Below, in pieces: positions 531 through 49,652 of a stretch of 64,000 bases of DNA; the first letter of the stretch is position 1, and the number at the start of each line of letters is the position of its first letter. Position numbers and translations under genes: made by a program. Source of the DNA: Alphaproteobacteria bacterium (GTDB taxonomy: Bacteria > Pseudomonadota > Alphaproteobacteria > UBA9219); assembly GCA_033763555.1 (NCBI GenBank), contig JANRKK010000036.1, positions 2,418-66,417 on the forward strand, in the 5' to 3' direction. The notes beneath the pieces are model-generated. The model made no database searches. It was not told the DNA's origin and worked only from the letters and a program-made list of their open reading frames with translations.

Positions 531-734
531 GATGCTGTGCGTCCCAGGGCAGACCCTAAAGCCCTCTCTCTTATTTTCCAAGTGAATCAGGGAGTTGCCC
601 GGCCTTCGACCACTGAAAACAACTCAGGGTGGAGAAATATATTGTCCCCACAGGCGCATACGGCTATATGGTGCGCCGCTCCGCAAGGGGCATCCCGCCC
701 GCCTGTTTCGACCCCTCATTCCCCTATCCGCTGC

Positions 735-11031: not shown

Positions 11032-11169
11032 CGGCGAACAGAACCCGTCACGAATCGACACCCAAATGTTCTAATGGCATCGGGCCGCCTAGTCGATAGC
11101 GATTATTAGGAAAAAACCGCGTATTCAGGCTTTAAAAGCAGGCTGTTGCCGCAAATCCAGAGCGCGGCC

Positions 11170-24053: not shown

Positions 24054-24571
24054 AGAGAACGCTTCGCCTGCACACCCGTTTCCTGTTGCCTGCCTTCTGC
24101 CTTCTGGCCGCTTGCGGATTTCAGCCGATCTATGGCGCGCAGGATAAAACGGGAACGCCCGTCGCCGGGCAGCTGAATCAGATTGCGATCGATAATATTC
24201 CCGAACGCTCCGGCCAGATTCTGCGCAATGAACTGATCGACCGCATGTATGGCCAGGGCCGCCCGCGACAACCGCTTTACAGACTCGAAGTAAAATTGCG
24301 CGCGACGCAGGAAGATCTCGGCCTCCGCGCCAACGCCACATCGACGCGAACCCTGCTGAACATGAATGCCGATTACATCCTGCGCGCAACGCAAGGCAAG
24401 GAATTGCTGCGCGGCACGGCGCACAGCATCACCAATTTCAACCGCCTGAGCACACAATACGGCAATGTCAGCGCGCTGGATGCCGCAACCGAACGCACCC
24501 TGCGCGAGGTGAGCGAGCAGATCGTCAACCGCCTCGCGCTTTATTTTGCCGAGACGGCAACGGCGAACTAG
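24050..24571 (+). CDS. lptE: LPS-assembly lipoprotein LptE
   Basis: It overlaps the leuS stop (ATGA), has the lipobox LLAAC, and its size and position after leuS are canonical. Confidence 0.75.
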
Positions 24572-24689
24572 ATATCTATAGATGCTTCCTTATAAGGTTA
24601 ACGGCAGTTGATAAGGGCTCTTTGTAAGAAAACAACTATTGATTCTAAGTGGTTAATTTCCTGTGCTTAACTTACAAGATGTGCCTGAA

Positions 24690-24731
24690 AATAAAGCTTT
24701 TTCTTGACTTATGCGCTCGCTTTACGGTAGC
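24690..24731 (+). promoter_or_regulatory. putative promoter element copy 1 (AAAGCTTTTTCTTGACTT) upstream of propeller gene 1
   Basis: An 18-nt element with a TTGACT -35-like core lies about 107 nt upstream of ATG 24800. It is 16/18 identical to the element at 26992-27009. Confidence 0.35.
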
Positions 24732-24799
24732 AACGTCCCGCCCATGGGTCACGCGAAAGATTGACCTTGAACTTATAAATTATTGCAAAGTGAGGAATC

Positions 24800-25834
24800 A
24801 TGCGCATCCAGAAATTATTTAAAGCTGTAAAAGATTCTATCTGCGGGCTTGCCGCCCTGTCAGCTGTTGCCCTGTCGCCATACGCAGCACGCGCTCAGGA
24901 TATTATAGAAGTTGAGATTCCCAAGGCTGACGGGGCCGATGTATCCGGACCCACCAGCGCTGGACGCAACATCATATTCCCTATCAACAGGCCTGGCACC
25001 ACAGGTCATCGAATTGGAGTGTTCACGCCGGAGGGACGCCCCTTTGCTGTCTTCGTGCCGACGACTCATGAAGAACAACTTGAAGGCGCCGATGTTAAAA
25101 ACGTCGCCAAAGGCCCTGGCGGTGCCTGGGGTACGCGCTACGATGCAAACGATGTTATCAAGCTCAATCTTGGCAGCGGAAGATTTAAAAAATTTGCCCT
25201 TCCGCCGAACAGCGGTCCTTTTGATCTGGTTCAGGGATCTGGAGGAATGTTTGTTACGCTGAAAATAGCAAACCAGATCGCTAAATTAAATTCCAGGGGA
25301 CAAGTTAAGGCCACATACGATATCCCCACGCCTAACAGCGGCGTTTCCCTTATTGTCAGGGGTGGAGGAGCTTTCAGAACCAGTGTTTTCTTCCTGGAGT
25401 CCAACGTCAATAAGGTGGGTGCATTTAATACTGTTACAGAAACTTTCAATGAATACCCGCTCCCTGCGGCGTGGGGAAAACCGAAGGACATCGCTGTTGA
25501 TCCCAAGACGGGCAATCTTTTGCTCGTTACCGAAAACGGATATTTCGGCAGCATGACCCCAACAGGCAGCTTCACGGCGTTTCCAGAACCCGGTGGAACT
25601 CGCCTCACAGGCGTAGCGGTCGATCCCAAGGGTAAGGTAGCGTGCACAAGCCATCAGGGCGGCACAATCTATTGCGCAACAACCAATGGAGAGCCCCTGG
25701 TAAGCATGCAGGTTCCAACGGATGCTCCCGATCTGATAGGCGTGGCCTTCTTTAGGGGTGGAAAACCGCAGCGGGGTCTTTCTCTCGAAAGAGATCAGGG
25801 ACAAGCGGCGATTTTCCCGGTTCCCAAGCCATAA
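24800..25834 (+). CDS. secreted beta-propeller repeat protein (Vgb/streptogramin-lyase-like or NHL-like), paralog 1
   Basis: It has a signal peptide and repeated blades of the form F.LP...GP.DL..G.DG..W.T...N.I.KL...G....Y..PT..SG. It has an SD GAGGA, and GC is about 50%. Confidence 0.7.
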   Translation: MRIQKLFKAVKDSICGLAALSAVALSPYAARAQDIIEVEIPKADGADVSGPTSAGRNIIFPINRPGTTGHRIGVFTPEGRPFAVFVPTTHEEQLEGADVKNVAKGPGGAWGTRYDANDVIKLNLGSGRFKKFALPPNSGPFDLVQGSGGMFVTLKIANQIAKLNSRGQVKATYDIPTPNSGVSLIVRGGGAFRTSVFFLESNVNKVGAFNTVTETFNEYPLPAAWGKPKDIAVDPKTGNLLLVTENGYFGSMTPTGSFTAFPEPGGTRLTGVAVDPKGKVACTSHQGGTIYCATTNGEPLVSMQVPTDAPDLIGVAFFRGGKPQRGLSLERDQGQAAIFPVPKP

Positions 25835-25855
25835 GCAGCCCTAAAAGCTGCCTTA

Positions 25856-26425
25856 TTAAACTGTAGTCTCGCTGGCTGTATCCAGAGCCATGCGCGCAAT
25901 GGCCAACGAAAATCCTGCGCGCGCCAGAACGGCTAGATCCTTGCGGCGTTGATCGGGCGCAGTTTTACCAGAACGAAAAGCGCCGAGTTTTTTTCGTCGC
26001 GCCAGCTTGCGTGCCGCGGTCAGTTCGACCTCTTCTGACTCCTCGCCTTCAAAAGCCGTGCGAACGATATTCTTGGAAATACCTGCCTGTGCCAGCTTCT
26101 GCTCGATGGCGCGGCGGGAGCGCCCCGCACGGCGCAGGCTGTTCAGCTTGGTTTCCGTGAAAGCCTTGTCATTCAGCACGCCGTTTTTTGTGTGCCGCTC
26201 GATAATGTTGGTTATAGTTTCGCGTAGTTTTTTTTGCGCAACATGGTCGGAAGCGAATGCCGTATCATGCATGGCTGCACGGCGCAGGCGGTTCTCCAGC
26301 ACACGGCGCAAGGCAGCTTCCGACGCCGCATAGCGTGCGAGATAGGCAAGCGCGACCTTGGCAAGCCGTTCGGAAGTCGGGATGGCGTAGCGGCGGGATT
26401 TGCGCTTCATAAGCCCCTGAATCAT
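25856..26425 (-). CDS. recX: recombination regulator RecX
   Basis: LAYLARYAASEAALRRVL... shows the three-repeat helical RecX architecture, 189 aa. Confidence 0.85.
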   Translation of the reverse strand: MIQGLMKRKSRRYAIPTSERLAKVALAYLARYAASEAALRRVLENRLRRAAMHDTAFASDHVAQKKLRETITNIIERHTKNGVLNDKAFTETKLNSLRRAGRSRRAIEQKLAQAGISKNIVRTAFEGEESEEVELTAARKLARRKKLGAFRSGKTAPDQRRKDLAVLARAGFSLAIARMALDTASETTV

Positions 26426-27086: not shown

Positions 27087-28118
27087 ATGAAAATCAAAGA
27101 ACTTCTTACATCCACAAAACTGGCCGCCTTTGCTACCGCTGCCACTCTGCTCCTGGCACCTCAATCTTCTCGCGCTCAATGGACAAAAGAAGTTTCCGTT
27201 CCATCGGCCCTTGGCGCCATAATGTCGCCGCCCGTCAGTGTTCGACGCAGTGTAGCGTTTGCCGTGAATCACCCCACCTATCAGCAGGTTGTCGTCACAA
27301 CGAGAAATGGTGCGGTGACGTCCACGTCCATACCGGCAACGGTCAGTGAGAAAAACAAAGGACCGGCTGTGACGGATATTGCCGATGGTCCCGGTGGGAT
27401 TTGGTTTACCCAATTCCATCTCGACAAGGTTGGTAGAGCCAGCCGAAGCGGAAATGTTGTTAAATATGCTCTTCCGGAAAACAGCCGTCCGACCGGCCTG
27501 ACTGAGGGACCCAAGCACGACATGTTCGTTGTCCTCCAGGGATCCGATTCCATTGCCCGACTCAAAAGAGGTGTGGTCGTCGCCGAATACAGCGTTCCTA
27601 CGCCGGATAGCGGCTTGGTTCATATCGCCAGCGGTGCCGGCCCTTCTCGTGACAATCTCTTTTTCACAGAGTGGAGAGCCGGTCAGATTGGCATCTTGAA
27701 CGCCAAGACAAATACTATCAGTGAGTATGCGCTTCCTGCGGGATTGCATACACCCACCGATATCACGGTCGATCCGAAAACAGGAAATGCCTGGTTCCGC
27801 GTAGAGGGTGACGCGCAGATCGCCATGATAACGCCGACGGGCAATATCACCGGCTTTGTGATCTCTCCCGAAGGTTATAGCGCCTCGGGCATCGCCGTCA
27901 CCCGTGACGGGGCCGTATGTGCCCCCGTGCCGGAAGCGCATGTGATTGCCTGCATGCAGCGTGATGGAAGTCCCCTGGCCGATATTCGCATCCCGTCGGA
28001 TGGATGCCTGTCAGGCGTTGCTGCTTTCAAGGGACCGCAACACAGTCGGCGCCCCGACATCGCGGTGATTGAAAATTGCGCTGCGCGCGTAGGCTTGGCA
28101 CCAGTACCAACTCCTTAA
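27087..28118 (+). CDS. secreted beta-propeller repeat protein (Vgb/NHL-like), paralog 2
   Basis: It has a signal peptide MKIKELLTSTKLAAFATAATLLLAPQSSRA and is about 35% identical to the 24800..25834 product across shared blade motifs (PTP.SG, VDPKTGN). It has an SD AGGAGA. Confidence 0.7.
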   Translation: MKIKELLTSTKLAAFATAATLLLAPQSSRAQWTKEVSVPSALGAIMSPPVSVRRSVAFAVNHPTYQQVVVTTRNGAVTSTSIPATVSEKNKGPAVTDIADGPGGIWFTQFHLDKVGRASRSGNVVKYALPENSRPTGLTEGPKHDMFVVLQGSDSIARLKRGVVVAEYSVPTPDSGLVHIASGAGPSRDNLFFTEWRAGQIGILNAKTNTISEYALPAGLHTPTDITVDPKTGNAWFRVEGDAQIAMITPTGNITGFVISPEGYSASGIAVTRDGAVCAPVPEAHVIACMQRDGSPLADIRIPSDGCLSGVAAFKGPQHSRRPDIAVIENCAARVGLAPVPTP

Positions 28119-28156: not shown

Positions 28157-31100
28157 TTACGAGATACGCCAGACTTCCATGATGGTGTTTTTCTTGACGG
28201 TCATCGTGCCGCTGGTGTTCTTTTGTATTTGAAGTTTTAAAGTTCCAGCCGTGTTCATGGATACATAACCCATGATTTGAATGGTGTAATTGTTGGTCGT
28301 GCCGCCCAGATTTCCTGTGAAAGATCCTGAGCCCGAAAGAACGTTGCTGGCATCGACGCCGGAGCCGCTTAGCGAAGAGAAACCGGACTCTACTGCCGTA
28401 GCTGTTGCGGCTGTCATGGCAAGCTTCCAGGTGGCGGTGTTGGAAGAGACTATGGTCCCTAAAATTCTGAATCCCCATACGGTTCCCGCGGGCAGGGAAG
28501 CTGATTCACAGCCTGTCACGTCGTAGGTCACCCCAAACGAAGCGGTCGTATAGTCGCTGCCATTGCCGCAATATCCGACCCACCGGTAGAAGCCACCTTC
28601 AGCCGTGGAGGTGTGGTTGTGCGCGGCAGGGGTGCCAGCAGCACCGATCTGGTTCCATGTGCTGCTGTAATAGACTTCCATCGTCGGCACCGTACTGTTG
28701 TACCGAACCATACCATCCGAAGGAGAACCGGGACGCTGGCCCGTCGTACCCGTAGGCAGCAGCATGGCGCCCGTGGTGTTCATGGTGATTTTGCCTGTGC
28801 CCTTCGGCGCGATATTGATATCGATATTGCTGTCCGATCCTATCGCCGAGATGGTAGGGCCATTGCCCGTTGTCGCGCCCGCAATCTGCACATAATTTAC
28901 GCCCGAAGCTGTTGATTGCAGATAGAGCGTTCGACCAGCCGTACTTGTGCTGTTTGTCATGTCTCCTAATAGCAGGTTGCCTATATTTAAATGATAACTT
29001 GTGCTGGACGCAGGCGTATCCACCAGGGCCGTCGTGCCGATCAAGATATTGTTGCTGCCTGTTGTTAAAACAATGGAGCTGACAGATGGCCCAATGGCCA
29101 CATTGTTTGACCCGGTTGTGACGGCTCCCAATGCATCATAACCTAAGGCAACGTTATAGGTTCCGGTCGTGTTTGCATCCAAAGCTGCAGAACCAACCGC
29201 TGTATTGTTGGCGCCGGTTGTACTTGCATCTAAAGCGTTATAGCCAACGGCTGTATTGTAATTTCCGCTGCCGATAGTAGCAGCGGCACCCACGACCGTA
29301 CTATAAGAACCTGTAGTTGAAGCATCCGCTCCCAGGGCAACGCTGTAAGTCGTGCCGCCTGCACTCGCCTGAAAACCAACCGCTGTGTTGTAGGTGCCCG
29401 TCGTGCTGGCCTGTGCGCTGGCGCCCACCGCTGTGTTGCGATGACCGGTTGTAGCTGATGACATTGCACTGTAACCGATCGCCGTATTCAAAATCCCCGT
29501 TGTGTTGCCCGAAAGCGCCGTCGAGCCAATGGCCGTATTAAGAGCTCCGCTCGTGTTGCCATTCAATGCATTCGCACCGAGTGCTACATTGTTTGAGCTT
29601 GATAAGAGGCCAACCCCCGGCCCTGTTATGGATGCCAAGGCACCCGTCCCTATGGCGATGTTCCACACACCGGAAAGAATACCCAAATTGGTCGTAATTG
29701 AAGGAAGAGTTGAAGCGCTTCCAACGACGGTGTTGGCGTTCGTCGTATCCTGCCAGAACATTGTGCCGCCATTGAATTGCAAGACGCCCGCAGAACCAAC
29801 AGGGGCGAAATTCATGTGCTGCGTTGCTGTGGCGCCGCCGACGGCAAGCTTCACAGCGGTGCCGCTCTTGCCCGGTGTGATGGACAGATAATCTACGCCG
29901 CTGGCAATGGTATTCCACCGCTCAACTTCGATGCCGCCTGCGGCAACATTGACGGTATTCGCGCCTGAGCTAAAGAATCCGGTTGTCGCATCGCCCGAAC
30001 GACGCGGGTTAGCTGCCGAAGCCGATGTGCCAAGATCAATGGTCGAAGAACCGCCGCCTGTGCCCAGCGAATTCCATGTGCTGTTGTAATAGGCCTCGAT
30101 AGCTGGCGTCGTGCTGTTGTAACGGATCATGCCCGCCACGCCCGTAGGACGCGTGCCCGTCGTACCAACGGGAAGCAGCACGCTGCTTGTGTGGGCGCTA
30201 ACATCAAGGGCCGTGCCTGTCGTCGGCGCGCTGGGACCGATGGAGAGAGCGCCCGATGTATTCATGACGACCCGGACGGCCGCGGCGGTTCCATCCCAGA
30301 TATAAAGATTGCTGGCATAAGGTGCGCCTGTTGCGGAACCGCCCGTCGATATATTGTAGGTACGGCTGGCCGTCTTCAGTGATAATTCGGAGAAAGCATT
30401 TGTTGCCGTAGTCTCAATAAGAGCTGGTACAGTCTGCCCACTTGCTGAGCTGTAAACATGCAGCTTGTTGCCCGGAGCCGTCGTGCCAATGCCAACCCCG
30501 CCCGTGCCCTTGGGCGTCAGCACGATACCGATATTACTGTCCGAGCCTTGCGCCGAAAGCGCGGGATGCGCCGTGGTCGCTGCGCCTGCCACTTGCAGGT
30601 AATTCACGCCCGACGCCGTCGATTGCAGATAGAGGGTTTTGTTATAGGTTCCCGTGCTGTTGGTCATATCGCCTTGCAGCAGGTTACCGATGTTCAGATT
30701 GTAATTGGTTCCCGCGGCCGCTGTGGTCACAGCGTTGGACGTACCAATCAAAATGTTGTTGCCGCCCGTCGTCAGGGTCGATGAGGCGACACCATAACCG
30801 ATCGCTACGTTATTTGTCCCGGTGGTAATGCTGGAGCCGCTCGACACGCCTATCCCCGTATTGCTGGCCCCGGTTGAATTGCTGACCAATGCGAAATGTC
30901 CAACAGCCGTGTTATCGGCACCAGTTGTGTTGCTTTTTAATGAATCGTAGCCCACAGCAGTGTTACGACTACCTGTTGTAAACGCTAACGCTTCATTACC
31001 TACGGCAACGTTACGAATGCCAGTTGAATTTGTTTTAAGAGCCCACACGCCGAGCGCCGTATTATCAGCGCCGGTCGTATTGGCAGTAAGTGCGATGGTT

Positions 31101-34100
31101 CCAATCCCTATATTTCCATAACCCGTGGTGTTGGCATTCATCGCCTGATAGCCTACGGCGATATTGCCAGAACTGTCAGCAGCCGTAGCGGCCAACGCCT
31201 GATAGCCGATGGCTATATCTATCGTACCCGGTTTCACGCCCGTACCGATGCCGATCGCGGTGGTGGTGGAGGCGGAATAAGTATCCGTCGCACTGCTGGT
31301 ACCAATCAAAATATTATTCGTGCCCGTCGCCAGGGTCGTACTGCCGACCCGATAACCAATGCCGACATTGTTGGTACCTGTGGTGTTGGTTTTTAAGGCT
31401 TCCATTCCCAAGGCCGTATTGAAAGCGCCCGTCGTGTTGCCGATAAGCGCCGATGCGCCCGCGGCCGTATTGCTGGCTCCGGTGGTCGTATTTCTCAGCG
31501 CCTGGGCACCCAGCGCTGTATTGGCTGATGCGCCCGTGGTGACAAAAAGCGCAAAAGAGCCTATCGCCGTACTGTTACCGCTCGTCGCGCTATCTTTCAT
31601 GGCCGATGCGCCAACAGCTGTATTGCTCGTGCCCGTCGTATTGGCATTCAAAGCGCTACTCCCGAGCGCCGTGTTCCAGAGGCCGTTGAAGCCGCCGCCC
31701 GCCTGGGAAATTGTTCCTGAGCCCGCACTCTGACCGACAATCGTATTGGCGGCGCCATCTGACCAGAACATATTGCGGCCGTTGAACTGCAGGGTGCTTG
31801 TGGTGCCCGCCGTGGCGAGATTCAAACCTTGTGTTGCGGTCGCGCCAGCCGCTGCTATCTTGGGATAGGTGCCGCTCTTGCCCGGTGTGATGTCAACATA
31901 ATCGACGCCTGAAGCAATGGTATTCCACCGCATCGCTTCGATGCCACCTGCCGCGACGTTCACGATGTTTGCGCCCGACGTATAGAAACCCGTCGTCGCA
32001 TCGCCCGAACGCTGCGGGTTCGCTGCCGAGGCCGAGGTACCGAGTGTCAGGTTGTTACTGAGCGTGCTGTTGCTGCTCAACAGACTGTTCCAGGTGCTGT
32101 TGTAATAGGCCTCCATGCCCGTCAGCGTTGAATTGTAGCGCACCATGCCGTTGGCAGCCGTAGGACGCTGGCCCGTCGTACCGCCCGGAAGCGTCAGGGC
32201 CGTCGTCGCACTCATGGTCAGAATGCCGGCGCCCTTCGGCGTAAAGGTCATGCTGATATCCGTATCGGAACCTTGCGCCGAAAGCACCGGCGCGGCGCCT
32301 GCCGCAGCACCAGCCACCTGCAGATAATTCACACCCGATGCCGTCGACTGAAGATACAGAGTCTTATTGTAGGTTCCCGTGCTGTTGGTCATATCGCCCT
32401 GCAGCAGGTTGCCGACATTGAGATTGTAATTGGTTCCGGCGGCCGCTGTATCCACCGCGCTCGATGTACCGACAAGGATGTTGTTGGCTCCGGTTGCCAG
32501 AGTTGTCGAAGCGACCTGATAGCCGATCGCGACGTTATTCGTACCTGTCGTGATTTTTGAACCGCCCTGGAAACCGATACCTATATTGGCGACACCTGTC
32601 GTATTGGCGACAAGGGCGCTTGTACCAAAAGCTGCATTGCCAGCGCCTGTCGTATTAGCGGCGAGGGCACTTGTGCCAACGGCTGTATTGGAAGTACCTA
32701 TTGTGTTGCTTTGTAAAGCATTGCCACCCACAGCCGTGTTGAAGAAACCCGTGGTATTGGCATTGAGGGCTTGATAGCCGACGGCTGTATCCAGCCGTCC
32801 GTTAAATCCACCGCCTGTTTGGGAAATCGTCGCAGGCGCGCCGCTGAGCCCTACGATGGTGTTGAAGTTTGTTGCATCCTGCCAGAACATCGTGCTGCCA
32901 TTGAATTGCAGGACACCTGCTGCACCCACCGGGGCAAAATTCAGATGCTGCGTTGATGTCGCGCCAGCAGCGGCGAGCGTCACGGCCGTGCCGCTCTTGC
33001 CTGGTGTAATGGAGAGGTAATCAACACCTGAGGCGATGGTGTTCCAGCGCATCGCCTCGATGCCGCCTGCAGCGACGTTGACGGTGTTCGCGCCCGATGT
33101 GAAGAAGCCGGTTGTCGCATCGCCCGAGCGCTGCGGGTTTGTATCCGAAGTTGAAGTGCCCAAAACCGTGGTTCCGCCGGGAGCGGCGCTGGTCAGCAGT
33201 TCTTCCCAGGATCCGTCGATATAGGCTTCCACGGCTGGCGTATCGCTGTTGTAGCGAATCATGCCGTCCGCTGGTGAAGCTGGCTGTTGACCCGTTGTGC
33301 CACCCGGAAGCGTCAGGGCCGTTGTTGCATTCATGGTCAGAATGCCAGCGCCCTTTGGCGTGAAGGTCATACTGATGTCTGTATCGGAACCTTGCGCTGA
33401 AAACACCGGAGCCGCGCCTGCCGCCGCGCCCGCAATTTGCAAATAATTCACCCCCGACGCTGTCGATTGCAGATAGAGGGTTTTGTTATGCGTGGCATCG
33501 CTGTTGGTCATATCGCCCTGCAGCAGATTGCCAATATTTAAATTATAATTGGTACCATCCGCCGCATCCACGGCATCCGTTGTCCCTATCAGAATATTGT
33601 TCGACCCCGAAGTTAACGTTTGCGAGCCAACGCCATACCCAATGCTCACGTTATAAGAACCATCTTCATTCGCGCCGCCAGCATCACTTCCGATGCCAAT
33701 ATTGCCAACACCGCTCGCGTTGTTCGCAAGGGCGCCGCTGCCAATGGCAGTGTTGTTCGCGCCTGTTGTGAGTTGAAAAAGAGAATTAATACCAATCGCT
33801 GTGTTATAAACACCCGTTGAATTTGCATTAAGGGCGTAATGGCCAACCGCCGTATTGTAGCTGCCTGTTGTATTGTTGTTTAAAGCAGAAAATCCCAAGC
33901 CTGTATTGTTGACACCTTCTGTGTTGAAATAGAGGACTTGAAGACCAACTGCTGTGTTGTTGATGCCCGTTGTATTCGACGCAAGGGCGAGGCCGCCTAC
34001 TGCTGTATTATAATTGCCTTCCGTGTTTGCGCCCAGGGCTTGGTTTCCTACCGCTGTATTGAGGATACCAGTTGTATTGAGCTGAAGCGCTTGCGTGCCT

Positions 34101-36802
34101 ATTGCCGTATTTTCGTAGCCCGTCGTATTCGTGAACAACGAAACAAATCCAACCGCTGTGTTACCATAACCTTCGGTATTACCCTGCATGGCTCCGGCAC
34201 CAAGAGCTGTGTTGCCTTGTCCGGTCGTGTTCGAGCCCAGTGCGGCCGCACCGATGGCCGTGTTGACGCCTCCGGTGGAGTTGACACTCAAGGTTTGAAA
34301 CCCAACAGCTGTATTGTATTTGCCGTTATTGCCACCGCCAGCCTGAGAAAGGCTTCCCGGCATACCTGTATCACCGACAGCTATATTTGCATTAACCTCA
34401 TCCTGCCAAATTCCATTGAGACCACCGAGATGCAAAGCACCCGTCACGATATTCACATTGCCTGTGCCCGCAGGGGCGAGATCGAGCGTTTGATTGCTGG
34501 TCGCACCAGCAACGGCAAGTTTGACGTTCGTACCGCTCTTGCCCGGCGTGACGGACACATAATCCACGCCGCTGGCCATCGTGTTCCAGCGCATCACTTC
34601 GATACCGCCAGCCGCAACGTTGACGGTGTTCGCACCGGATGTGAAGAAACCGGTTGTCAGATCGCCCGAGCGTTGCGGGTTTGTGTTGGCGGCTTGCGTA
34701 CCGAGTGTGATGCCGCCACTGATGGTGCCCGTGACGTTACCCGTGAGATTGCCGACGAAAGTTCCAGCCGTTACCGTGCCGCCAAACGTCGCATTGCCTG
34801 TGGAGCGCTCAATCGACAAAGGTGTACCCAGCGCCGTGCCATTGTCATGGAAGCTTTGAATGGTGAAGTTCGAGCCCGCATCGCTGCCGCCTTCCGCCGC
34901 GCTATTCGTGCTGACAACCCAGCGCTTGCTGGTCGCACCCGTCGTAAACTGAATTTCGCGGCTCGTGCCCGCGGCACCTTCGATGCGGATATTGCCGACA
35001 AGATCGAGCCGTTCATTCGGCACGGTTGTGCCGAGGCCGAGATAGCCATTCTCATCCAAAATCGCCTGATCGACGCCGCCCGTGGTGAAGGTGATACCGT
35101 CATTATTCAGCGTTACGGTCTGTCCATTGCCGTCGCTTAAAACATTGGTCGAAACATTCGTCGCATAGGTCAGACGGCCATCGGCATCGACCGTACCCCA
35201 GTTGTAGCTTCCGGGCGTAACGGTCGTTGATTCCAGCTGCAACGGCCCTACCGTGCCATCTTGAATGGCGCTTCCAGGAATTGAGTTGGTCGCAAAACGG
35301 TTGGTGTCGAGAACGCCCGTTGTCAGGTTGGCCGCGTCGTTGGCGCCGAGATTGGAACGTGCCGTCGGCGCCGTTGTCGCGCCCGTACCGCCATTGGAAA
35401 TGGCAACGACGCCGCTGACATTGGTTGCATTGCCTGTCAGGGGGCCGCTGAAATTCGCAGCCGTCACAGTGCCGGAGAAAGTCGCACCGCTGCCCGACAT
35501 GGCACCGCCGAAGGTGCTGGTACCTGTGACGCCCAAGGTGCCGCCCACCGTCGCATTGCTGCCGATAGCAGCAGAGCTCAGCGTGCTGGCTCCGGCCTCC
35601 AGTGTTCCGCCCACAATGGCATTCGTCGTAACGCCCAGAGAATCGAAGGTGCCCGCGCCGCCCGCGACCGCACCGCCAAACGTCGCATCGCCTGTGACGC
35701 CCAAGGTGCCGCCGACGGCAGCATTATTGGTGATGGTGGCGGAACTGAGTGTGCTGGCTCCGGCGCTTAAAGTGCCGCCCAGGGTCGTATTGCCTGTGAC
35801 GCCAAAAGTACCGCCAACAGTGGCGTTATTGGTCACGCCGAGGGATGAGAAAGTGCCCGCGCCGCCCGCAACAGCGCCGCCGAAAGTGGCATCACCCGTA
35901 ACACCCAAAGTGCCGCCGACGGTCGCGTTGGTTGTTACAGCGGCGGAATTCAATGTGCTTGCGCCCGCCGATAAAGCACCGGAGAAAGCGCCGCTGGCCG
36001 CCGAGATCGCGCCTGTACTGACGGCCGCCAGTGTTGAGGTGCCTTGAACGTCAAGGGTTCCCCGAACGAGCAGATTACCGCTTGAGTCGACAACCAGCTG
36101 CGAGCCGACTTGACCGAATTGCACCGATGTTGTGTTGCCACCGCTGACCGTCGCCTGCCAGACCGCCGAGCGGTTGACCGCCGTCATCACGGGCCAGGAG
36201 AGAATGATGTCATCGCCTTGCGCCGAGGCATCGCCGCATCGTGTGTTCAGAGAACCGTCCGGCCCGGCAGACAGGATCATGAAAGCAGGATCGCTTCCAG
36301 GGCTGGTAGGATTTTCCCAACGGCAATAAATGTAATAATGGCCGTAGCCGTCCATTTGCTTGAGGCCCGACCCGGCGGTGAAAACACCGACTTCCGCCGG
36401 AGAGCCGGATGAACCCGCGCTGCTGGCATTGGCGGGAAGTTGCGCCTGCCCGCTGATCGCCGCCATTTTGACTGTCGAGGATGCGCACTCCGCCGAAGCA
36501 CTGCCGCCCTGCGGCGGGCAAAGCAAGGTTGTGTCAGCGCTGAGCGTTGAAGTTGCAGCCAGGGTAGTCGCGTTGGCGTTGAGATCGCCCTTGGTCGTCA
36601 TGTCATTGGTCATCTGCACGTTGCTGCGCAGAATCTGGCTGTAACCGCTGAAGAGAACGCCCGCACCGACGCCGACAAGGCCGAGCATGTACAGAATGGG
36701 GGCAATGCCAAAGCCCGCGCGGCGGCGTACCGAAGGCGAAGACGAACATGGCCGGAAGAAAGGCCGGGAGCGGCGCGCGGCTTGTGAATCTTTCTCTGTC
36801 AT
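28157..36802 (-). CDS. giant (2881 aa) membrane-anchored fibrous repeat protein (YadA-head/Hep_Hag-like and phage tail-fibre-like repeats)
   Basis: ATG 36802 has the SD GGGAG. The N-terminus is Arg-rich, followed by a TM helix GFGIAPILYMLGLVGVGAGVLF. It has long runs of 17-aa repeats NTAVGxxALxxNTTGxx. Four roughly 450-aa super-repeats each contain ...NVAAGGIEAMRWNTIASGVDY.SITPGKSGT... and ...TLPGGTTGQRP...GM[IV]RYNST.P..EAYYNSTWN.L. It has a unique C-terminal about 200-aa domain. It is Thr/Gly/Ala/Asn/Ser-rich, and its GC is heterogeneous, at 47-58%. Confidence 0.85.
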   Translation of the reverse strand: MTEKDSQAARRSRPFFRPCSSSPSVRRRAGFGIAPILYMLGLVGVGAGVLFSGYSQILRSNVQMTNDMTTKGDLNANATTLAATSTLSADTTLLCPPQGGSASAECASSTVKMAAISGQAQLPANASSAGSSGSPAEVGVFTAGSGLKQMDGYGHYYIYCRWENPTSPGSDPAFMILSAGPDGSLNTRCGDASAQGDDIILSWPVMTAVNRSAVWQATVSGGNTTSVQFGQVGSQLVVDSSGNLLVRGTLDVQGTSTLAAVSTGAISAASGAFSGALSAGASTLNSAAVTTNATVGGTLGVTGDATFGGAVAGGAGTFSSLGVTNNATVGGTFGVTGNTTLGGTLSAGASTLSSATITNNAAVGGTLGVTGDATFGGAVAGGAGTFDSLGVTTNAIVGGTLEAGASTLSSAAIGSNATVGGTLGVTGTSTFGGAMSGSGATFSGTVTAANFSGPLTGNATNVSGVVAISNGGTGATTAPTARSNLGANDAANLTTGVLDTNRFATNSIPGSAIQDGTVGPLQLESTTVTPGSYNWGTVDADGRLTYATNVSTNVLSDGNGQTVTLNNDGITFTTGGVDQAILDENGYLGLGTTVPNERLDLVGNIRIEGAAGTSREIQFTTGATSKRWVVSTNSAAEGGSDAGSNFTIQSFHDNGTALGTPLSIERSTGNATFGGTVTAGTFVGNLTGNVTGTISGGITLGTQAANTNPQRSGDLTTGFFTSGANTVNVAAGGIEVMRWNTMASGVDYVSVTPGKSGTNVKLAVAGATSNQTLDLAPAGTGNVNIVTGALHLGGLNGIWQDEVNANIAVGDTGMPGSLSQAGGGNNGKYNTAVGFQTLSVNSTGGVNTAIGAAALGSNTTGQGNTALGAGAMQGNTEGYGNTAVGFVSLFTNTTGYENTAIGTQALQLNTTGILNTAVGNQALGANTEGNYNTAVGGLALASNTTGINNTAVGLQVLYFNTEGVNNTGLGFSALNNNTTGSYNTAVGHYALNANSTGVYNTAIGINSLFQLTTGANNTAIGSGALANNASGVGNIGIGSDAGGANEDGSYNVSIGYGVGSQTLTSGSNNILIGTTDAVDAADGTNYNLNIGNLLQGDMTNSDATHNKTLYLQSTASGVNYLQIAGAAAGAAPVFSAQGSDTDISMTFTPKGAGILTMNATTALTLPGGTTGQQPASPADGMIRYNSDTPAVEAYIDGSWEELLTSAAPGGTTVLGTSTSDTNPQRSGDATTGFFTSGANTVNVAAGGIEAMRWNTIASGVDYLSITPGKSGTAVTLAAAGATSTQHLNFAPVGAAGVLQFNGSTMFWQDATNFNTIVGLSGAPATISQTGGGFNGRLDTAVGYQALNANTTGFFNTAVGGNALQSNTIGTSNTAVGTSALAANTTGAGNAAFGTSALVANTTGVANIGIGFQGGSKITTGTNNVAIGYQVASTTLATGANNILVGTSSAVDTAAAGTNYNLNVGNLLQGDMTNSTGTYNKTLYLQSTASGVNYLQVAGAAAGAAPVLSAQGSDTDISMTFTPKGAGILTMSATTALTLPGGTTGQRPTAANGMVRYNSTLTGMEAYYNSTWNSLLSSNSTLSNNLTLGTSASAANPQRSGDATTGFYTSGANIVNVAAGGIEAMRWNTIASGVDYVDITPGKSGTYPKIAAAGATATQGLNLATAGTTSTLQFNGRNMFWSDGAANTIVGQSAGSGTISQAGGGFNGLWNTALGSSALNANTTGTSNTAVGASAMKDSATSGNSTAIGSFALFVTTGASANTALGAQALRNTTTGASNTAAGASALIGNTTGAFNTALGMEALKTNTTGTNNVGIGYRVGSTTLATGTNNILIGTSSATDTYSASTTTAIGIGTGVKPGTIDIAIGYQALAATAADSSGNIAVGYQAMNANTTGYGNIGIGTIALTANTTGADNTALGVWALKTNSTGIRNVAVGNEALAFTTGSRNTAVGYDSLKSNTTGADNTAVGHFALVSNSTGASNTGIGVSSGSSITTGTNNVAIGYGVASSTLTTGGNNILIGTSNAVTTAAAGTNYNLNIGNLLQGDMTNSTGTYNKTLYLQSTASGVNYLQVAGAATTAHPALSAQGSDSNIGIVLTPKGTGGVGIGTTAPGNKLHVYSSASGQTVPALIETTATNAFSELSLKTASRTYNISTGGSATGAPYASNLYIWDGTAAAVRVVMNTSGALSIGPSAPTTGTALDVSAHTSSVLLPVGTTGTRPTGVAGMIRYNSTTPAIEAYYNSTWNSLGTGGGSSTIDLGTSASAANPRRSGDATTGFFSSGANTVNVAAGGIEVERWNTIASGVDYLSITPGKSGTAVKLAVGGATATQHMNFAPVGSAGVLQFNGGTMFWQDTTNANTVVGSASTLPSITTNLGILSGVWNIAIGTGALASITGPGVGLLSSSNNVALGANALNGNTSGALNTAIGSTALSGNTTGILNTAIGYSAMSSATTGHRNTAVGASAQASTTGTYNTAVGFQASAGGTTYSVALGADASTTGSYSTVVGAAATIGSGNYNTAVGYNALDASTTGANNTAVGSAALDANTTGTYNVALGYDALGAVTTGSNNVAIGPSVSSIVLTTGSNNILIGTTALVDTPASSTSYHLNIGNLLLGDMTNSTSTAGRTLYLQSTASGVNYVQIAGATTGNGPTISAIGSDSNIDINIAPKGTGKITMNTTGAMLLPTGTTGQRPGSPSDGMVRYNSTVPTMEVYYSSTWNQIGAAGTPAAHNHTSTAEGGFYRWVGYCGNGSDYTTASFGVTYDVTGCESASLPAGTVWGFRILGTIVSSNTATWKLAMTAATATAVESGFSSLSGSGVDASNVLSGSGSFTGNLGGTTNNYTIQIMGYVSMNTAGTLKLQIQKNTSGTMTVKKNTIMEVWRIS
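29862..30010 (-). repeat. intragenic direct DNA repeat copy (about 150 bp) inside the giant gene
   Basis: CCGCTCTTGCCCGGTGTGAT...TCGCATCGCCCGAACG.CGCGGGTT is near-identical to the copies at 31872, 32990 and 34543. Confidence 0.8.
31872..32020 (-). repeat. intragenic direct DNA repeat copy
   Basis: As above. Confidence 0.8.
32990..33139 (-). repeat. intragenic direct DNA repeat copy
   Basis: As above. Confidence 0.8.
34543..34681 (-). repeat. intragenic direct DNA repeat copy
   Basis: As above. Confidence 0.8.
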
Positions 36803-45417: not shown

Positions 45418-45479
45418 TCGCCTTTTTGTCCTTGCCGCCTGTTTTACTTTTGCTCCCACTTTGCTAGTGAAGGGCGGTG

Positions 45480-48400
45480 ATGCGCGGTTTGTTTCCTGTT
45501 CTCCGGCTTTTGGCTCTCCCAGCCCTTTTGATTCTGCCCGGTTTTGCCGCGGCCCAGGAAGGCGGCGACGGAACCCTGCATGTGCTGCGCCCCGTCATTC
45601 ACGCGGAACGCGAAAAGGCCGAGCTGTGTCTGGAATTTGACCATGATCTCGATCCCGACAATGGTGCGCGGCTTGGCGCAGGCGCGCATCTGAAGGCCGG
45701 ACGCAAAACCACGGCGTTGACCTCATCAAGTGCCAGCAGCGCCGGACGGCTTCTGTGTGTGCAGGGGCTTGAGCATGGGCAGGATTACCGTCTGAGTATC
45801 GCCAGCCTGCGCGGCGCAAAGGGCGAGAAGCTGGACGGGCCTTACAATCTGAGTTTTTCCATTCCCGATCGTCGTGCTTCCTTGGTGTTTGCAGGAGCAG
45901 GTGGCGGTTTTGTGCGCTGGCAGGGGAAAAACCCGGTGCTGCGCGCCATGAATGTACCGCAGGCGGATATCGAGCTTTACCGCGTGAGCGACCCGGCTTT
46001 CATGGCGCAGGCCTGGCGGGAAAAACAGCAAACCTCGCTGGCGCCTTCGGAAAGCGCCTATCTCGCGCGCGAACGCGGCACCTTGCTGTGGAAGGGTGCC
46101 CTGGTTCTTGGCGATGCGCGCAATCAGGATATGGAGCAGAAAATTCCCCTGCGCGCCGTTGCGGGCGATATGCCGCCGGGGCTTTATCTGCTGGTAGCGC
46201 ATGGCGACAAGGCGGAAAGCGAAGATGAAGATTCTGGCCCCGCGCCAATGGCGGCTGTCTGGCTGCTGCATTCTGATCTGAAACTTAACGCTCTACGCGA
46301 TACAAAAGGCTTTTACGCCCTGGCGGAAACAGGGGATGCTCCCGCGAAAGATGTTCAACTGCTGGTCTTCGACCGCAAAGGGCAAAGTCTTTCGGAAGGC
46401 AAAAGCGGTGATGACGGCGTTGCGTTTTTTCCCTTCTCTGCTGACAAGGCTCCGAACGCGGCGCTGATCACGGGCCTCACCGCCGCAGGCGATGTTGATT
46501 TTGTCAATCTGGACTCAGCGGAAACACAGCGTCTGGCGCTGACACGCAGCGAGATTGCGCTAACAACCGATAAGCCTTTCTATCCGCCGGGCACGGACGC
46601 TTCGGTCACGCTGACAGCGCATGATATTTTTGGAAAAGCCATGCCTGTCTCCGGCAGCACATTAAAACTGCTGCGGCCTGACAAAAGCCTTTATGCAAGC
46701 CTGCCCGTGCCCAACGGCGACTCCTCAGGAAGCGCAAAAATCCCGCTTTCTGTTCCAGCTGCCAGCGGTGTCTGGCCTCTTGTATGGCAGAGCGCGGATG
46801 GCGCAGTACTGGCCGAAAATGTCCTGCGCGTTGCCTCAAGCCGCGATGCGCCACGTTTTGAGATGAGCGCCGACCGCGCCATGCTATCGCCGGAAGGTGA
46901 GGTTCATCTTGCGGTGAAAAGCCTGACCCATGACGAAAAGCCTGCGCCTTTTCTGCCGGGACGGATTTTTGTGTCCTGGGCTGTTCCCGACCGGGCCTTT
47001 CCCGGCTGGGACAATTACCGCTTCGGAACAGGCGCGGCCAATGCAAGCGATGCTACAGCGGTCGCTTCCTTCATCACCGATGATAAAGGCGCAGCCCATC
47101 TGCGCCTGAAACTGACACCGCCTGAAAATACTCCGGCTTTGCGCAGCGCCATTCTCAACCTGCAACCTGCGCCGGGCGCCGAAGCCGCAGCGCCGAAGCC
47201 GCTCGCGCTGCCCATGGCGCCGCGGGACTTTACCATTGGCGTCAAGCCGTTGGCCGCTGATGGGCGTTTCGCTGAAAATGGTGCGGCGCGATTCAGTATT
47301 GTGGCGCTCGATATTGAAGGCCGTCGCCGTGCCGTTGATAGTCTGACTTATCAAATCTATGAGGAAGGCCGCAGTTTTGAGTGGTATCAGAGTGAAGGGC
47401 GCTGGAGCTACAGGCCGCAGCAGCAGAAGCGCCGTATCGGCGGCGGCCCCCTGACGCTGGATGCTGATGGCGAAAACATCATCGACTGGCCCGTAACGGC
47501 GGGCAGCTACCGTTTGGAAATCACCCGCGCAACAGGCGGCATGCTGGCCGCCGTGAATTTCAGCGCGGGCTGGGCCGAAGCCGAAACACAAGCTTCCAGC
47601 CGCTTACCGCTGAATCTTTCGGCCTCCTCCAAAATTTTGAAGCCGGGACAGGCAGCGATTTTGCGCTTCACGCTCGACAAGCCTTCCATGGTCAATATTT
47701 TTATCGGCGATGATCATGTTCGCAAGGTTGCGCATCAGTTCATGCCCGCGGGCGCACATGAATTTTCCTTCACGCCCGAGAAAAACTGGGGACGGCAGAT
47801 CACGGCACGAGTTGAAATGCGCGGCTTTGCAGGCGAACTGATCCTGCCCCTCACGCCCGATGGAAAAGAACCTGCTGAAACAACGGCAGAAGAATCAGGT
47901 GAAGCCCTGAAGCTCAGCGCGCAATTCCCCGCTTTTCTTCGCGCGGGGGATTCCGCAAATCTTTCCCTGAGGCTGGAAGGCGGCAAGATTCCAGAAGGCT
48001 CGTACCGCTATGCGGTGAGCGCCGGAGCCGATGGCAAAATCACGAATGGCGGCGGCACCGTGGCTCTCGCGCCCGGACGGGCAAGGGATATCGTTTTTAC
48101 CCTGAAAGCCTCACAACCCGGCACCGCATCGATCAAGGCGGAAATCTCAGGTCCTGCGCGCATGCATGCCAGCGCCACATGGTCGCTTCCCATTGCTGGG
48201 CAGGATACGGTTTTGAAAGTCGTTGGCGAAGATACCTTAAGGCCGGAAGAATCCTGGCCGCCTGCGGCGGGCAAAAAAAGCGCGGCGAAAACTTTGGGTG
48301 ATTTTATCCTGATTGGTGCGCGGCCTTTGTTTGATACGCCGATTTTGCTCTCAGATGTCCTGAACGCACCGCCTGTGACGACCGCGCAGATAGCAGGGCG

Positions 48401-49652
48401 CATGGACATGCTGCGCCTCTGGCGTGATGTCATTCTGGCGACGAAGCTGCTTTCGGAATCGGTTCTGGATGCCAAGCGCCGTGATCTCCGTCTCCGCCTG
48501 CTGGCACGGCAGATGCCGGATGGCGGCTTTCCTTCCTTACCCGGCGCAGTGGCGGATATGCCCGCAACCGCAGCAGCTCTGGTTGCGCTGGCGCAGGATA
48601 CGCCCGATGCCGCCAGACTGGGGCTGGAACAGGCCGCCAGCTGGCTGCAGCATCGTCTGGAAAACAGCTGGTTCGAGGAAGGTGAACGGCCCCAGCGTGC
48701 CGCCGCCTATGCGGCGCTCGCATCCGCCGGACGGCTGAACATCGCCAATCTGCATTATTTTGCCGACACCAGCGCGGATAAATCCCTTCCGCCTCTGGCA
48801 GCGCTGCAGCTGGCTTATGCTTTCGCCCATATTGACGATCAGAACAAAACACAATTCTGGCTGAACGCGGCGGCCGTCAATAAGGATTCGCCGGATATTT
48901 CCGTAACGGCCCTGCCGCTGCTGGCTGAAAACCGTTTCTTTGATCCGCAGGTGCTTTTGCCCGCGCTGGAAAAATCATCGGGTGCGGCGGCCAAATCCTC
49001 CGGCAGCAGTGTGGGATCGATGATCGGTCTTCTGCGTGCCATTCGTGCCGTGCATGAACGCGCCGGAGGATGGCGTGTCACGATCGGCAACGACAAGCGC
49101 AGCCCAAAAACTGTTTTGACCGTTCCCGTGCCGGAAAAAACCACTGGCTTTTCCATCCGCAACACAAACGACGCGCCTTTGTTTTTTGCCGCTGTGAAAA
49201 GCGCCAATGCGACAGGCGCGCCCGTCCTCGCGCGCCGCATTTATAAAATGAACGGAACCGAAGCCGCCGCCGAAGCGCTGCTGAGTGAGAAAGAAACCTA
49301 TCTGGTCGTTCTGGAAGGTCCGTGGACAGGCAACAGCGATGCGCCCCTGCACCTGCATGATGCGCCCGGCCCCGGCCTGCGCCCGGCGGGGTGCTTGCCG
49401 GAAGCGCCGCTTGAGGTTGGCGAATCCCTCGCCTGGCTGCGCAGCCATCCACCTGGTCCCGCACCTCTGTGCGAGATCTGGGGCGGTTCGGTTGATTTCA
49501 TGCTGACGCGCGCCGAAGGCCCGGCCATGTGGCGTGCCGCCTATCTGGCACGCGCCGATCAAAGCGGCGAGTTTGCCTGGCCCGCGCCATGGGCGCAGCA
49601 GGGGCAAAACGAACCTATTCAGGGATTAAAAAGCCGGATTACAATCCGTTGA
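45480..49652 (+). CDS. bacterial alpha-2-macroglobulin family protein
   Basis: 1390 aa with a signal peptide and the MG-domain/bait/TED-like architecture typical of YfhM-type A2M. No obvious CGEQ thioester was seen. Confidence 0.8.
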   Translation: MRGLFPVLRLLALPALLILPGFAAAQEGGDGTLHVLRPVIHAEREKAELCLEFDHDLDPDNGARLGAGAHLKAGRKTTALTSSSASSAGRLLCVQGLEHGQDYRLSIASLRGAKGEKLDGPYNLSFSIPDRRASLVFAGAGGGFVRWQGKNPVLRAMNVPQADIELYRVSDPAFMAQAWREKQQTSLAPSESAYLARERGTLLWKGALVLGDARNQDMEQKIPLRAVAGDMPPGLYLLVAHGDKAESEDEDSGPAPMAAVWLLHSDLKLNALRDTKGFYALAETGDAPAKDVQLLVFDRKGQSLSEGKSGDDGVAFFPFSADKAPNAALITGLTAAGDVDFVNLDSAETQRLALTRSEIALTTDKPFYPPGTDASVTLTAHDIFGKAMPVSGSTLKLLRPDKSLYASLPVPNGDSSGSAKIPLSVPAASGVWPLVWQSADGAVLAENVLRVASSRDAPRFEMSADRAMLSPEGEVHLAVKSLTHDEKPAPFLPGRIFVSWAVPDRAFPGWDNYRFGTGAANASDATAVASFITDDKGAAHLRLKLTPPENTPALRSAILNLQPAPGAEAAAPKPLALPMAPRDFTIGVKPLAADGRFAENGAARFSIVALDIEGRRRAVDSLTYQIYEEGRSFEWYQSEGRWSYRPQQQKRRIGGGPLTLDADGENIIDWPVTAGSYRLEITRATGGMLAAVNFSAGWAEAETQASSRLPLNLSASSKILKPGQAAILRFTLDKPSMVNIFIGDDHVRKVAHQFMPAGAHEFSFTPEKNWGRQITARVEMRGFAGELILPLTPDGKEPAETTAEESGEALKLSAQFPAFLRAGDSANLSLRLEGGKIPEGSYRYAVSAGADGKITNGGGTVALAPGRARDIVFTLKASQPGTASIKAEISGPARMHASATWSLPIAGQDTVLKVVGEDTLRPEESWPPAAGKKSAAKTLGDFILIGARPLFDTPILLSDVLNAPPVTTAQIAGRMDMLRLWRDVILATKLLSESVLDAKRRDLRLRLLARQMPDGGFPSLPGAVADMPATAAALVALAQDTPDAARLGLEQAASWLQHRLENSWFEEGERPQRAAAYAALASAGRLNIANLHYFADTSADKSLPPLAALQLAYAFAHIDDQNKTQFWLNAAAVNKDSPDISVTALPLLAENRFFDPQVLLPALEKSSGAAAKSSGSSVGSMIGLLRAIRAVHERAGGWRVTIGNDKRSPKTVLTVPVPEKTTGFSIRNTNDAPLFFAAVKSANATGAPVLARRIYKMNGTEAAAEALLSEKETYLVVLEGPWTGNSDAPLHLHDAPGPGLRPAGCLPEAPLEVGESLAWLRSHPPGPAPLCEIWGGSVDFMLTRAEGPAMWRAAYLARADQSGEFAWPAPWAQQGQNEPIQGLKSRITIR

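Follow-up and report, generated by a model that had tools for sequence, protein, structure and literature searches.

A giant phage-type fibre protein with a candidate pilin-like N-terminal module in an uncultured alphaproteobacterium

The MAT fibres of Bdellovibrio bacteriovorus (Bd3182 and Bd2133) are chromosomally encoded chimeras that resemble phage tail fibres, measure about 1,000 residues and begin with a Sec signal peptide, behind which lies a conserved beta-rich N-domain of about 130 residues (PMC10769870). Among the type IV pilins, modular forms such as PilB and PilC of Streptococcus sanguinis join an N-terminal pilin module with a canonical class III signal peptide to a grafted adhesive module of a few hundred residues that a type-4 filament displays (PMC8179133, PMC10191384), and CofB, a protein of about 500 residues encoded inside a pilus operon, forms a trimer located at the tip (PMC10191384). 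Here we analysed a 64,000-nucleotide stretch of alphaproteobacterial DNA (assembly GCA_033763555.1, contig JANRKK010000036.1, positions 2,418 to 66,417), referred to as the window, which contains a gene for a repetitive protein of 2,881 residues. Our data indicate that this protein is very probably a surface adhesion fibre carrying a variable tip, and that its N-terminal module is conserved and, by a good margin of plausibility, pilin-like. The Bdellovibrio MAT family is its closest functional analogue, although three times shorter and with another anchor, whereas modular pilins and CofB/TcpB, which possess canonical signals and are 5–10 times smaller, are the closest mechanistic analogues. 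The combination of a pilin-like module starting with GFxxxP and a phage-type fibre of several thousand residues appears to be undescribed and has no family model, and we found no published description of the family in the literature.

The gene occupies positions 28157..36802 on the minus strand and encodes 2,881 residues from an ATG, with no internal stop. A Shine-Dalgarno-like GGGAG is located 4 nt ahead of this ATG, and an in-frame TTG lying 18 nt 5' of it offers an alternative start that would yield 2,887 residues. An initial annotation, made from the sequence alone, had described a giant uninterrupted frame at this place, and so it proved; the frameshifted or pseudogenised state, which that annotation had named as a ground for abandoning its interpretation, is not the case, and we therefore rejected the pseudogene reading. 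An assembly artefact was rejected as well, since the repeat copies are merely 60–79% identical in DNA, which points to old duplications rather than to misassembly. The same protein, residue for residue, has an NCBI entry, 'MAG: hypothetical protein SFW62_07265 [Alphaproteobacteria bacterium]' (MAG, metagenome-assembled genome), on a contig of 198,818 bp. The amino-acid composition is extreme, Gly, Thr, Ala, Ser and Asn making up 62% of the protein, and Kyte-Doolittle analysis gave a single hydrophobic window in its whole length, at residues ~29–55. The Arg-rich, non-classical N-terminus with one transmembrane helix that had been described initially thus corresponds to a basic leader and this sole hydrophobic window. 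No match to the full-length protein was obtained in Pfam at E ≤ 1, and scans of the whole protein and of isolated segments against Pfam and NCBIfam returned nothing useful; the lone NCBIfam match, RclR, was discarded as spurious (22 bits against a cutoff of 400 bits).

According to its sequence, the body of the fibre is pieced together from phage tail-fibre modules. The PHROG families 6002, 23837 and 4636, annotated as 'virion structural protein' and 'tail spike protein', matched it with E values from 1e-73 to 5e-90, and tblastn matched 134 phage records, with 32–46% identity among the 25 best-covered ones listed; these included tail fibres of the Pelagibacter phages HTVC111P and HTVC112P, the Roseobacter phages CRP-1, CRP-7 and CRP-831, a Methylophilales phage and many cyanophages. 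All tblastn matches were confined to residues ~770–2720 and covered at most 28% of the protein. Tail fibres of marine phages (Pelagibacter HTVC111P, Roseobacter CRP-7, P-SSM2) share with it both the 17-residue arrays and the 'LP.GTT.QRP..G.RYN..E.Y..W' blocks, at 35–46% identity, but they are encoded in virion modules and have no pilin-like N-domain. A direct homology to the MAT fibres was also observed, as residues 569–690 matched the PDB entries 8ojn, 8onb and 8onc in phmmer (E 3e-8 with the segment, 7e-6 with the whole protein), entries that correspond to residues 632–922 of Bd3182 (PMC10769870). Like the MAT fibres, the family described here comprises members with and without the S74 domain and combines a conserved proximal part with variable tips in a likely predatory host. 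The MAT fibres belong, however, to a different phylum, and the window protein lacks a signal peptide and opens with a helix followed by a sheet, a difference that refers to the published description of the MAT N-domain rather than to a sequence comparison. The fibre is probably a homotrimer, to judge from its homology to fibres of trimeric type, and several trimer-associated families were recognized in its relatives (Peptidase_S74, PTL_trimer (PF26696), Gp34_trimer, Phage_T4_gp36 and DUF2793); the S74 chaperone domain is present in many relatives and missing from the window protein.

Matches of this strength to tail fibres, tail spikes and virion structural proteins could suggest that the gene encodes the tail fibre of a prophage, a tailocin or a gene-transfer agent, the hydrophobic segment being incidental. 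We regard this as very improbable. The matches involve the repeat modules alone, no phage genes were found in the 64-kb window, three genomes have the gene at syntenic chromosomal positions, and the N-domain was absent from 2.9 million viral contigs. One flank of the gene holds secA, scpAB, argS, a porin gene, DUF3576, leuS, lptE, recX and two genes of the Vgb-lyase family, while the other carries RidA, DUF4175, lysA, a thioredoxin-like gene, hslVU, polA, tilS, rnpA and yidC; the window also contained no tRNA genes. The slot between RidA and recX holds a homologue of the giant gene in two further metagenomic genomes (here and below, related loci are cited by L numbers and family proteins by P numbers; these two are L002 and L058). 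Housekeeping synteny and a non-viral N-domain thus effectively refute a prophage or tailocin fibre, and the initial remark that no intact prophage is seen here agrees with the housekeeping flanks extending across the 64 kb.

The region behind the N-terminal module is built from repeats throughout most of its length. The proximal shaft (residues 218–470; 35393..36151, minus strand, as all features of the gene) consists of Gly/Thr/Ala-rich repeats of 17 or 34 residues (..NATVGGTLGVTGDATFGG..), which appear in the DNA as a repeat family, D4, with a spacing of 102 nt. Residues 471–700 (34703..35392) contain the 'GGTGATTAPTARSNLGA' motif in addition to the Bd3182-like domain. Four super-repeats follow: the first (residues 701–1213, 513 residues; 33164..34702) contains the longest run of 17-residue units and gave the PHROG virion structural and tail-spike matches, the second (1214–1586, 373 residues; 32045..33163) is the shortest, the third (1587–2256, 670 residues; 30035..32044) has a doubled repeat array and contains an inserted 'VGIGTTAPGNKLHV...' domain, and the fourth (2257–2720, 464 residues; 28643..30034) ends in the block 'LPTGTTGQRP..GMVRYNS..MEVYYSSTWNQIG'. 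Four super-repeats of roughly 450 residues had been proposed; their number stands, the conserved blocks occurring exactly four times each, but their lengths are far from uniform and differ chiefly in the number of 17-residue units. In super-repeat 1, about 12 consecutive units of the form NTAVGxxALxxNTTGxx span residues 826–1034 (33701..34327), as the initial annotation had noticed. Eleven of the 27 NTA[VLIA]G motifs of the protein lie here at an exact spacing of 17 (or 34) residues between positions 830 and 1017 (830, 847, ..., 1017), and the twelfth unit, at residue 966, is degenerate and reads 'NTGLG'. An AlphaFold2 (AF2) model of super-repeat 2 as a monomer reached a predicted local distance difference test score (pLDDT) of only 61 overall, with the 17-residue array and the RYN..W block moderately confident; within the array the model places one short strand in every 17 residues, at pLDDT 77–90. 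A poor monomer model would be expected if the segment forms an intertwined trimer.

These repeats had initially been compared to the heads of YadA and Hep_Hag proteins, and the window protein indeed resembles YadA-type adhesins in being long, repetitive and probably trimeric, and in its short Asn/Gly-rich beta-strand repeats. The pattern 'NTAVG..AL..NTTG' is superficially like the 'NSVAIG' of the YadA head, and some relatives are labelled 'trimeric autotransporter adhesin' by the Joint Genome Institute (JGI). Yet a trimeric autotransporter adhesin of this type is the least credible of the explanations considered. Neither Hep_Hag nor YadA_head, YadA_stalk or YadA_anchor matched the whole protein at E ≤ 1 or super-repeat 2 and the C-terminus at E ≤ 10, so that the proposed head resemblance lost its basis while the absence of a YadA anchor, also proposed, was corroborated. 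A Foldseek search with the low-confidence super-repeat model retrieved no trimeric autotransporter, the best matches having E > 5. Likewise, the C-terminal 170 residues gave no indication of a beta-barrel anchor in Pfam, NCBIfam or PDB sequence searches, and the anchor that defines this class is thereby missing. To judge from the sequence, neither a Sec signal peptide nor an autotransporter barrel nor a type I signal drives export.

The C-terminal domain (residues 2721–2881 and the stop codon; 28157..28642) is unique and constitutes the candidate receptor-binding tip. Its 161 residues showed no likeness to other parts of the protein, to 248 collected relatives, to PDB sequences or to Pfam and NCBIfam, in line with the distinct domain that had been recognized initially. 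A search of a word-indexed database, for which the C-terminal 170 residues served as query, also found no match, a negative that is unreliable because this search missed even the protein itself; local phmmer recovers it with the same query at 355 bits, and negatives obtained from the word index with low-complexity queries are not to be trusted. The syntenic homologue P0005, of 3,228 residues, illustrates the variability of this end. Residues 39–761 of the window protein align with it at 45% identity, a block that includes the proximal shaft, and the repeat modules are ~42% identical, whereas the C-terminal domains have no similarity. The suggestion that this domain forms a receptor-binding tip, a variable one, is supported indirectly, by a relative that retains the N-terminal 720 residues and bears an unrelated C-terminus. 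A conserved base with a swapped tip is the pattern of phage receptor-binding fibres and of the Bdellovibrio MATs.

Class III (prepilin) signals consist of a basic leader, Gly at −1, Phe or Met at +1 and about 20 hydrophobic residues that start a long alpha-helix, and a Glu at +5 is the hallmark residue of pilins. Type IVb prepilins have long leaders, a feature that the window protein shares with its 30 residues. The layout of its first 217 residues follows this scheme closely, with a basic leader, Gly−1, Phe+1, a hydrophobic stretch of ~21 residues, Gly14 and an aromatic residue near +24. The leader (residues 1–30, MTEKDSQAARRSRPFFRPCSSSPSVRRRAG; 36713..36802) is Arg-rich, predicted to be cytoplasmic and terminates in an invariant Gly30, the putative cleavage site reading RRRAG30|F31. 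It is followed by a hydrophobic segment (residues 31–55, FGIAPILYMLGLVGVGAGVLFSGYS; 36638..36712) that resembles the alpha1-N of pilins but has Pro at +5, and by the remainder of a long helix and a globular beta-sheet domain (residues 56–217; 36152..36637) with the motifs 'DPWG..Y.YC.WE' and 'ISAGPDG..T.CGD' (MDGYG in the window protein). In the family as a whole the conserved N-domain spans ~215 residues, with motifs DPWG.YY.YCRWE and ISAGPDG.L.T.CGD.

Conservation around the putative cleavage site and along the helix is pronounced. G−1 and F+1 are invariant in an alignment of 24 sequences. Among 145 family members, collected with a loose pattern that itself demanded Gly at −1, Phe occurs at +1 in 143, Leu at +7 in all 145, Tyr at +8 in 142, Gly at +14 in 144, Tyr at +24 in 128 and Gln at +26 in 143, while +5 is Pro in 131, Ala in 12 and Glu in none; Arg or Ala prevails at −2 and −3, and the leaders have a median length of 24 residues. 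About 36 of the first 119 relatives share the start ...R-A-G-F-[AGM]-[ILV]-A-P-[IL]-L-Y-[ML]-L-x-L-x-G-[VI]-G-A-x-V-[LM]-F-S-G-Y-S-Q-[IV]-L-[RK]-[ST]-N. Such strong conservation of a membrane helix would be typical of pilins rather than of passive anchors. The N-domain profile aligned in register with Geobacter PilA-N, G+14 and Y+24 matching up, though weakly (E 0.76), and also in register with two PilS-type pilins from the neighbourhoods of relatives (hhalign P 0.004). The AF2 model of the N-domain, built from the 24-sequence alignment, reached pLDDT 80.5 (90–96 in its core) and consists of a 50-residue helix (34–83) followed by a beta-sheet, and a family fragment of 181 residues had been named 'type II secretory pathway pseudopilin PulG' by the JGI pipeline. 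We consider the module to be pilin-like in its layout and predicted fold, its predicted parts being a basic cytoplasmic leader ending in Gly, Phe+1, a conserved hydrophobic helix and a small GspG-like beta-sheet domain, without filing it within the canonical pilin family. The differences to GspG/EpsG pseudopilins (PDB 4lw9, 5wda) are considerable, since matches to TIGR01710 (GspG) and N_methyl as well as Glu5 are missing, the N-domain is ~60 residues larger and contains a conserved Cys pair, and it is fused to a giant fibre. Modular pilins share the principle of a pilin module with an adhesive graft; in the window protein, however, Pro replaces Glu5, no pilin model matches, and the graft is of phage type and comprises ~2,660 residues.

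Several observations weigh against a pilin-type role. The isolated N-domain matched neither PF07963 N_methyl nor TIGR02532, GspG or other pilin hidden Markov models (HMMs) at E ≤ 10, although the same scans do detect N_methyl and TIGR02532 in canonical pilins of L001 and L005, and Foldseek of the N-domain model against the PDB returned nothing significant (best E 3.6). The hallmark Glu is absent at +5. In one subfamily (P0016, P0025, P0035–37, P0040, P0043, P0044, P0046–48 and P0243) a helix-turn-helix (HTH) extension of 140–200 residues precedes the G|F motif, which to our knowledge far exceeds any prepilin leader. No prepilin peptidase, secretin, platform protein or assembly ATPase is encoded in the 64-kb window, and of nine relatives with Pfam-labelled flanks, only L003 showed any type-4-filament or type II secretion system (T2SS) machinery, a T2SSE ATPase. 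The monomer model of the super-repeat is also poor. Finally, the assignment to Micavibrio-like predators derives from the names that submitters gave to related MAGs and from LeuS identity rather than from a phylogeny.

The main alternative is an uncleaved signal-anchor, which we consider possible but doubtful. In this alternative the helix would be of type II topology (N-in, C-out), the conserved periplasmic domain would be a base plate docking to peptidoglycan or to an outer-membrane partner, and the protein would never be part of a type-4 filament, reaching the surface by another route or through release in vesicles or upon lysis. A single long hydrophobic helix without a signal-peptidase-type site, the lack of matches from pilin HMMs and Foldseek, the absence of pilus genes from the window and from most flanks examined, and the large folded cytoplasmic HTH domain of the subfamily, which is easier to reconcile with a stable membrane protein than with a leader peptide, are all consistent with it, and the MAT fibres are likewise exposed at the surface by an unidentified route (PMC10769870). 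On the other hand, a signal-anchor offers a fibre of ~2,600 residues no passage across the outer membrane, and the near-invariant G−1, F+1, G+14 and Y+24 and the conserved whole helix over ~145 divergent proteins mirror the alpha1-N of pilins. As for Glu5, its partner within filaments is the N-terminus of the next subunit up, and capping subunits lack this residue (PMC10191384).

The extension of the HTH subfamily is itself conserved, and in one member, P0243, Pfam records HTH_23/HTH_28 within it. A similar HTH-like protein of 148 residues is encoded by a separate gene directly upstream of the giant in L055 (7004–7450). The extension could be a regulator released or tethered by the membrane protein.

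An exhaustive HMMER search of 1.84 billion cluster representatives yielded 251 clusters with the N-domain at E ≤ 1e-3, of which 147 reach E ≤ 1e-30. Among the 150 best matches listed, complete N-domains begin near the N-terminus, behind a leader or an HTH extension, the proteins reach up to 5,301 residues, and short entries are mostly fragments; the smallest seemingly complete member has 455 residues and an S74 domain. When one genome per GTDB species was scanned, the N-domain appeared in 50 species, all of them uncultured. The carriers are labelled Alphaproteobacteria, Rhodospirillaceae or Rhodospirillales, Micavibrio sp., Micavibrio aeruginosavorus (MAG) and 'Bdellovibrionales bacterium', and NCBI taxonomy places Micavibrio under Bdellovibrionales. 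The LeuS encoded in the window is 66–73% identical to that of three carrier MAGs. Most plausibly, then, the host is an uncultured alphaproteobacterium related to the predatory Micavibrio. One carrier is a complete chromosome of 1.64 Mb (L003, OZ251993.1), a size that would fit a dependent lifestyle. In three loci, all from ENA assemblies, the gene is broken up into consecutive open reading frames (ORFs), for instance of 1,787, 1,922, 147 and more than 1,647 residues; these loci are L002 (10001–25364), which contains a syntenic homologue, L055 and L056. The splits are probably long-read frameshift errors in repetitive DNA and not pseudogenes.

The surroundings of the relatives were surveyed by ORF clustering over 53 loci together with the nine Pfam-labelled flanks. 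Conserved housekeeping synteny prevailed, in the slot from RidA to recX and in a second fixed slot, behind apt and DUF2336, which accounts for about half of 50 related loci; the only departures were two pilins of PilS type, a PilT-like ATPase and a short protein starting with GFxxxP. The two canonical type IVb pilin genes of PilS type, with N_methyl/GFTLTE starts, lie 2–3 kb upstream of the giant (L001:7377–8066 and L005:6806–7441, minus strand). In L003, the divergent PilT-like ATPase ('AIRSLIRENR'; 31343–32317) is encoded 7.5 kb downstream of a giant of 4,607 residues. The short GFxxxP protein, of 219 residues, begins with 'AGFAVGPILFLIALL', has two C-terminal Cys and is encoded beside the giant copy of L055 (17300–17959), whose N-domain is 71% identical to that of the window protein; it may be a short pilin-like partner. 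Its gene lies ~700 bp downstream of a Peptidase_S26 gene (signal-peptidase/TraF family, 'GVSMAP'; L055:15809–16630) that overlaps the 3' end of the giant. In cultured Micavibrio the pil genes are dispersed, eight proteins resemble prepilins, and the T2SS lacks an annotated GspC, G, H or K (PMC3189940).

The pilin genes could also point to a conjugative or mobile-element type IVb pilus, on which the fibre would act as a mating or aggregation adhesin choosing partners for DNA transfer, like PilV of the R64 thin pili. All canonical pilins beside family members are indeed of PilS type (type IVb), L001 looks plasmid-like (RPA replication protein, ParA and ISL3), L056 contains integrases and a resolvase, and L055 carries MPTase-PolyVal besides the S26 peptidase. 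This reading nevertheless appears improbable, because neither the RidA-giant-recX-lptE-leuS slot, which is of housekeeping character and free of conjugation genes, nor the frequent apt-DUF2336 slot suggests a mobile element.

Additional fibre and surface genes were observed in these genomes. In L003 the 4,607-residue giant is followed by an S74-bearing paralogue of 503 residues with the same pilin-like start (24297–25904), and a two-partner-secretion (TPS) pair, ShlB and a TPS beta-helix protein of 1,447 residues, lies upstream (1–5440). Further fibre genes, encoding from 393 to more than 3,000 residues, are located directly downstream of pilin-type giants in L059 (15868–23616), L060 (15745–25505) and L057 (22703–32035). 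Their products start with an ordinary Sec signal peptide and a conserved Cys-rich 'C.TPTGVAG.Q.YNTSY..MQYCNG..W.NMG' domain, which resembles the 'G.RYN..E.Y..W' block of the super-repeats, and many contain S74; by sequence, these genomes possess a second class of anchor.

Within the window, two paralogous beta-propeller genes of the Vgb_lyase family, with signal peptides, flank recX (24800–25834 and 27087–28118). The one nearer to the giant gene converges with it and lies 39 bp from its stop; in L058 a Fic-domain gene takes this position. Farther away, a secreted protein of 1,292 residues (7183–11061, minus strand) displays 11 Cys-rich repeats of ~55 residues ('CG.A.G...P...LC..G.AS.V.G.GPW.W.C.G.NGG....C') and a C-terminal OmpA peptidoglycan-binding domain, the only part with a family assignment; the GC content of the window peaks inside its gene (0.667 over 8001–10000). 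Positions 45477–49652 encode a bacterial alpha-2-macroglobulin of 1,391 residues with bMG2, bMG3 and bMG6 domains.

The inner-membrane-anchored or otherwise unusually exported fibre that had been proposed initially can now be refined, the pilin-like N-terminal 217 residues being the candidate route. That a long adhesion fibre of phage-type modules is exported or anchored by this divergent type IV pilin/pseudopilin-like module is a proposal to which we give an even chance, and its display on a filament tip is a more tentative one, somewhat below that; cleavage, filament association, trimerisation and target are its inferred parts. The protein would enter the inner membrane N-in, as prepilins do, and prepilin peptidase may cut after Gly30. 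Since Glu+5 is missing, as in capping minor pilins, the fibre protein might cap a type-4 filament or a short pseudopilus, which would then drive the fibre across the outer membrane. If the fibre is a trimer, the three pilin modules at its base would be akin to the tip trimers of CofB/TcpB in type IVb pili, where a homotrimer with three basal pilin domains could cap and prime the filament, and PilS-type genes do lie beside two family members; however, no sequence or fold match links the protein to CofB, and the window gene, unlike that of CofB, is solitary in housekeeping surroundings. The conserved base and shaft would present the variable C-terminal tip to a receptor on another cell which, given the lineage, would most plausibly be a prey or host bacterium.

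A bolder extension of this proposal, speculative and rather unlikely in our estimation, would see in these proteins a new branch of type-4 filaments, in which 'GFxxxP' pilin-like subunits are capped by a homotrimeric phage-derived fibre of 2,000–5,000 residues. Such a device could serve Micavibrio-like epibiotic predators as a long-range and possibly retractable grappling hook with exchangeable prey-recognition tips, and in one subfamily cleavage would free the HTH domain, coupling deployment to transcription.

A pilin-like module on a phage-type fibre would represent a concrete export route for very long fibres that have neither an autotransporter barrel nor a type I signal. If this is true, the principle of the modular pilins, whose grafts measure a few hundred residues, would extend to fibres about ten times that size. 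The conserved base and the tips swapped in fixed chromosomal slots make these proteins strong candidates for determinants of prey or host specificity in relatives of Micavibrio, and the family would add another case in which bacteria have domesticated the receptor-binding hardware of phages.

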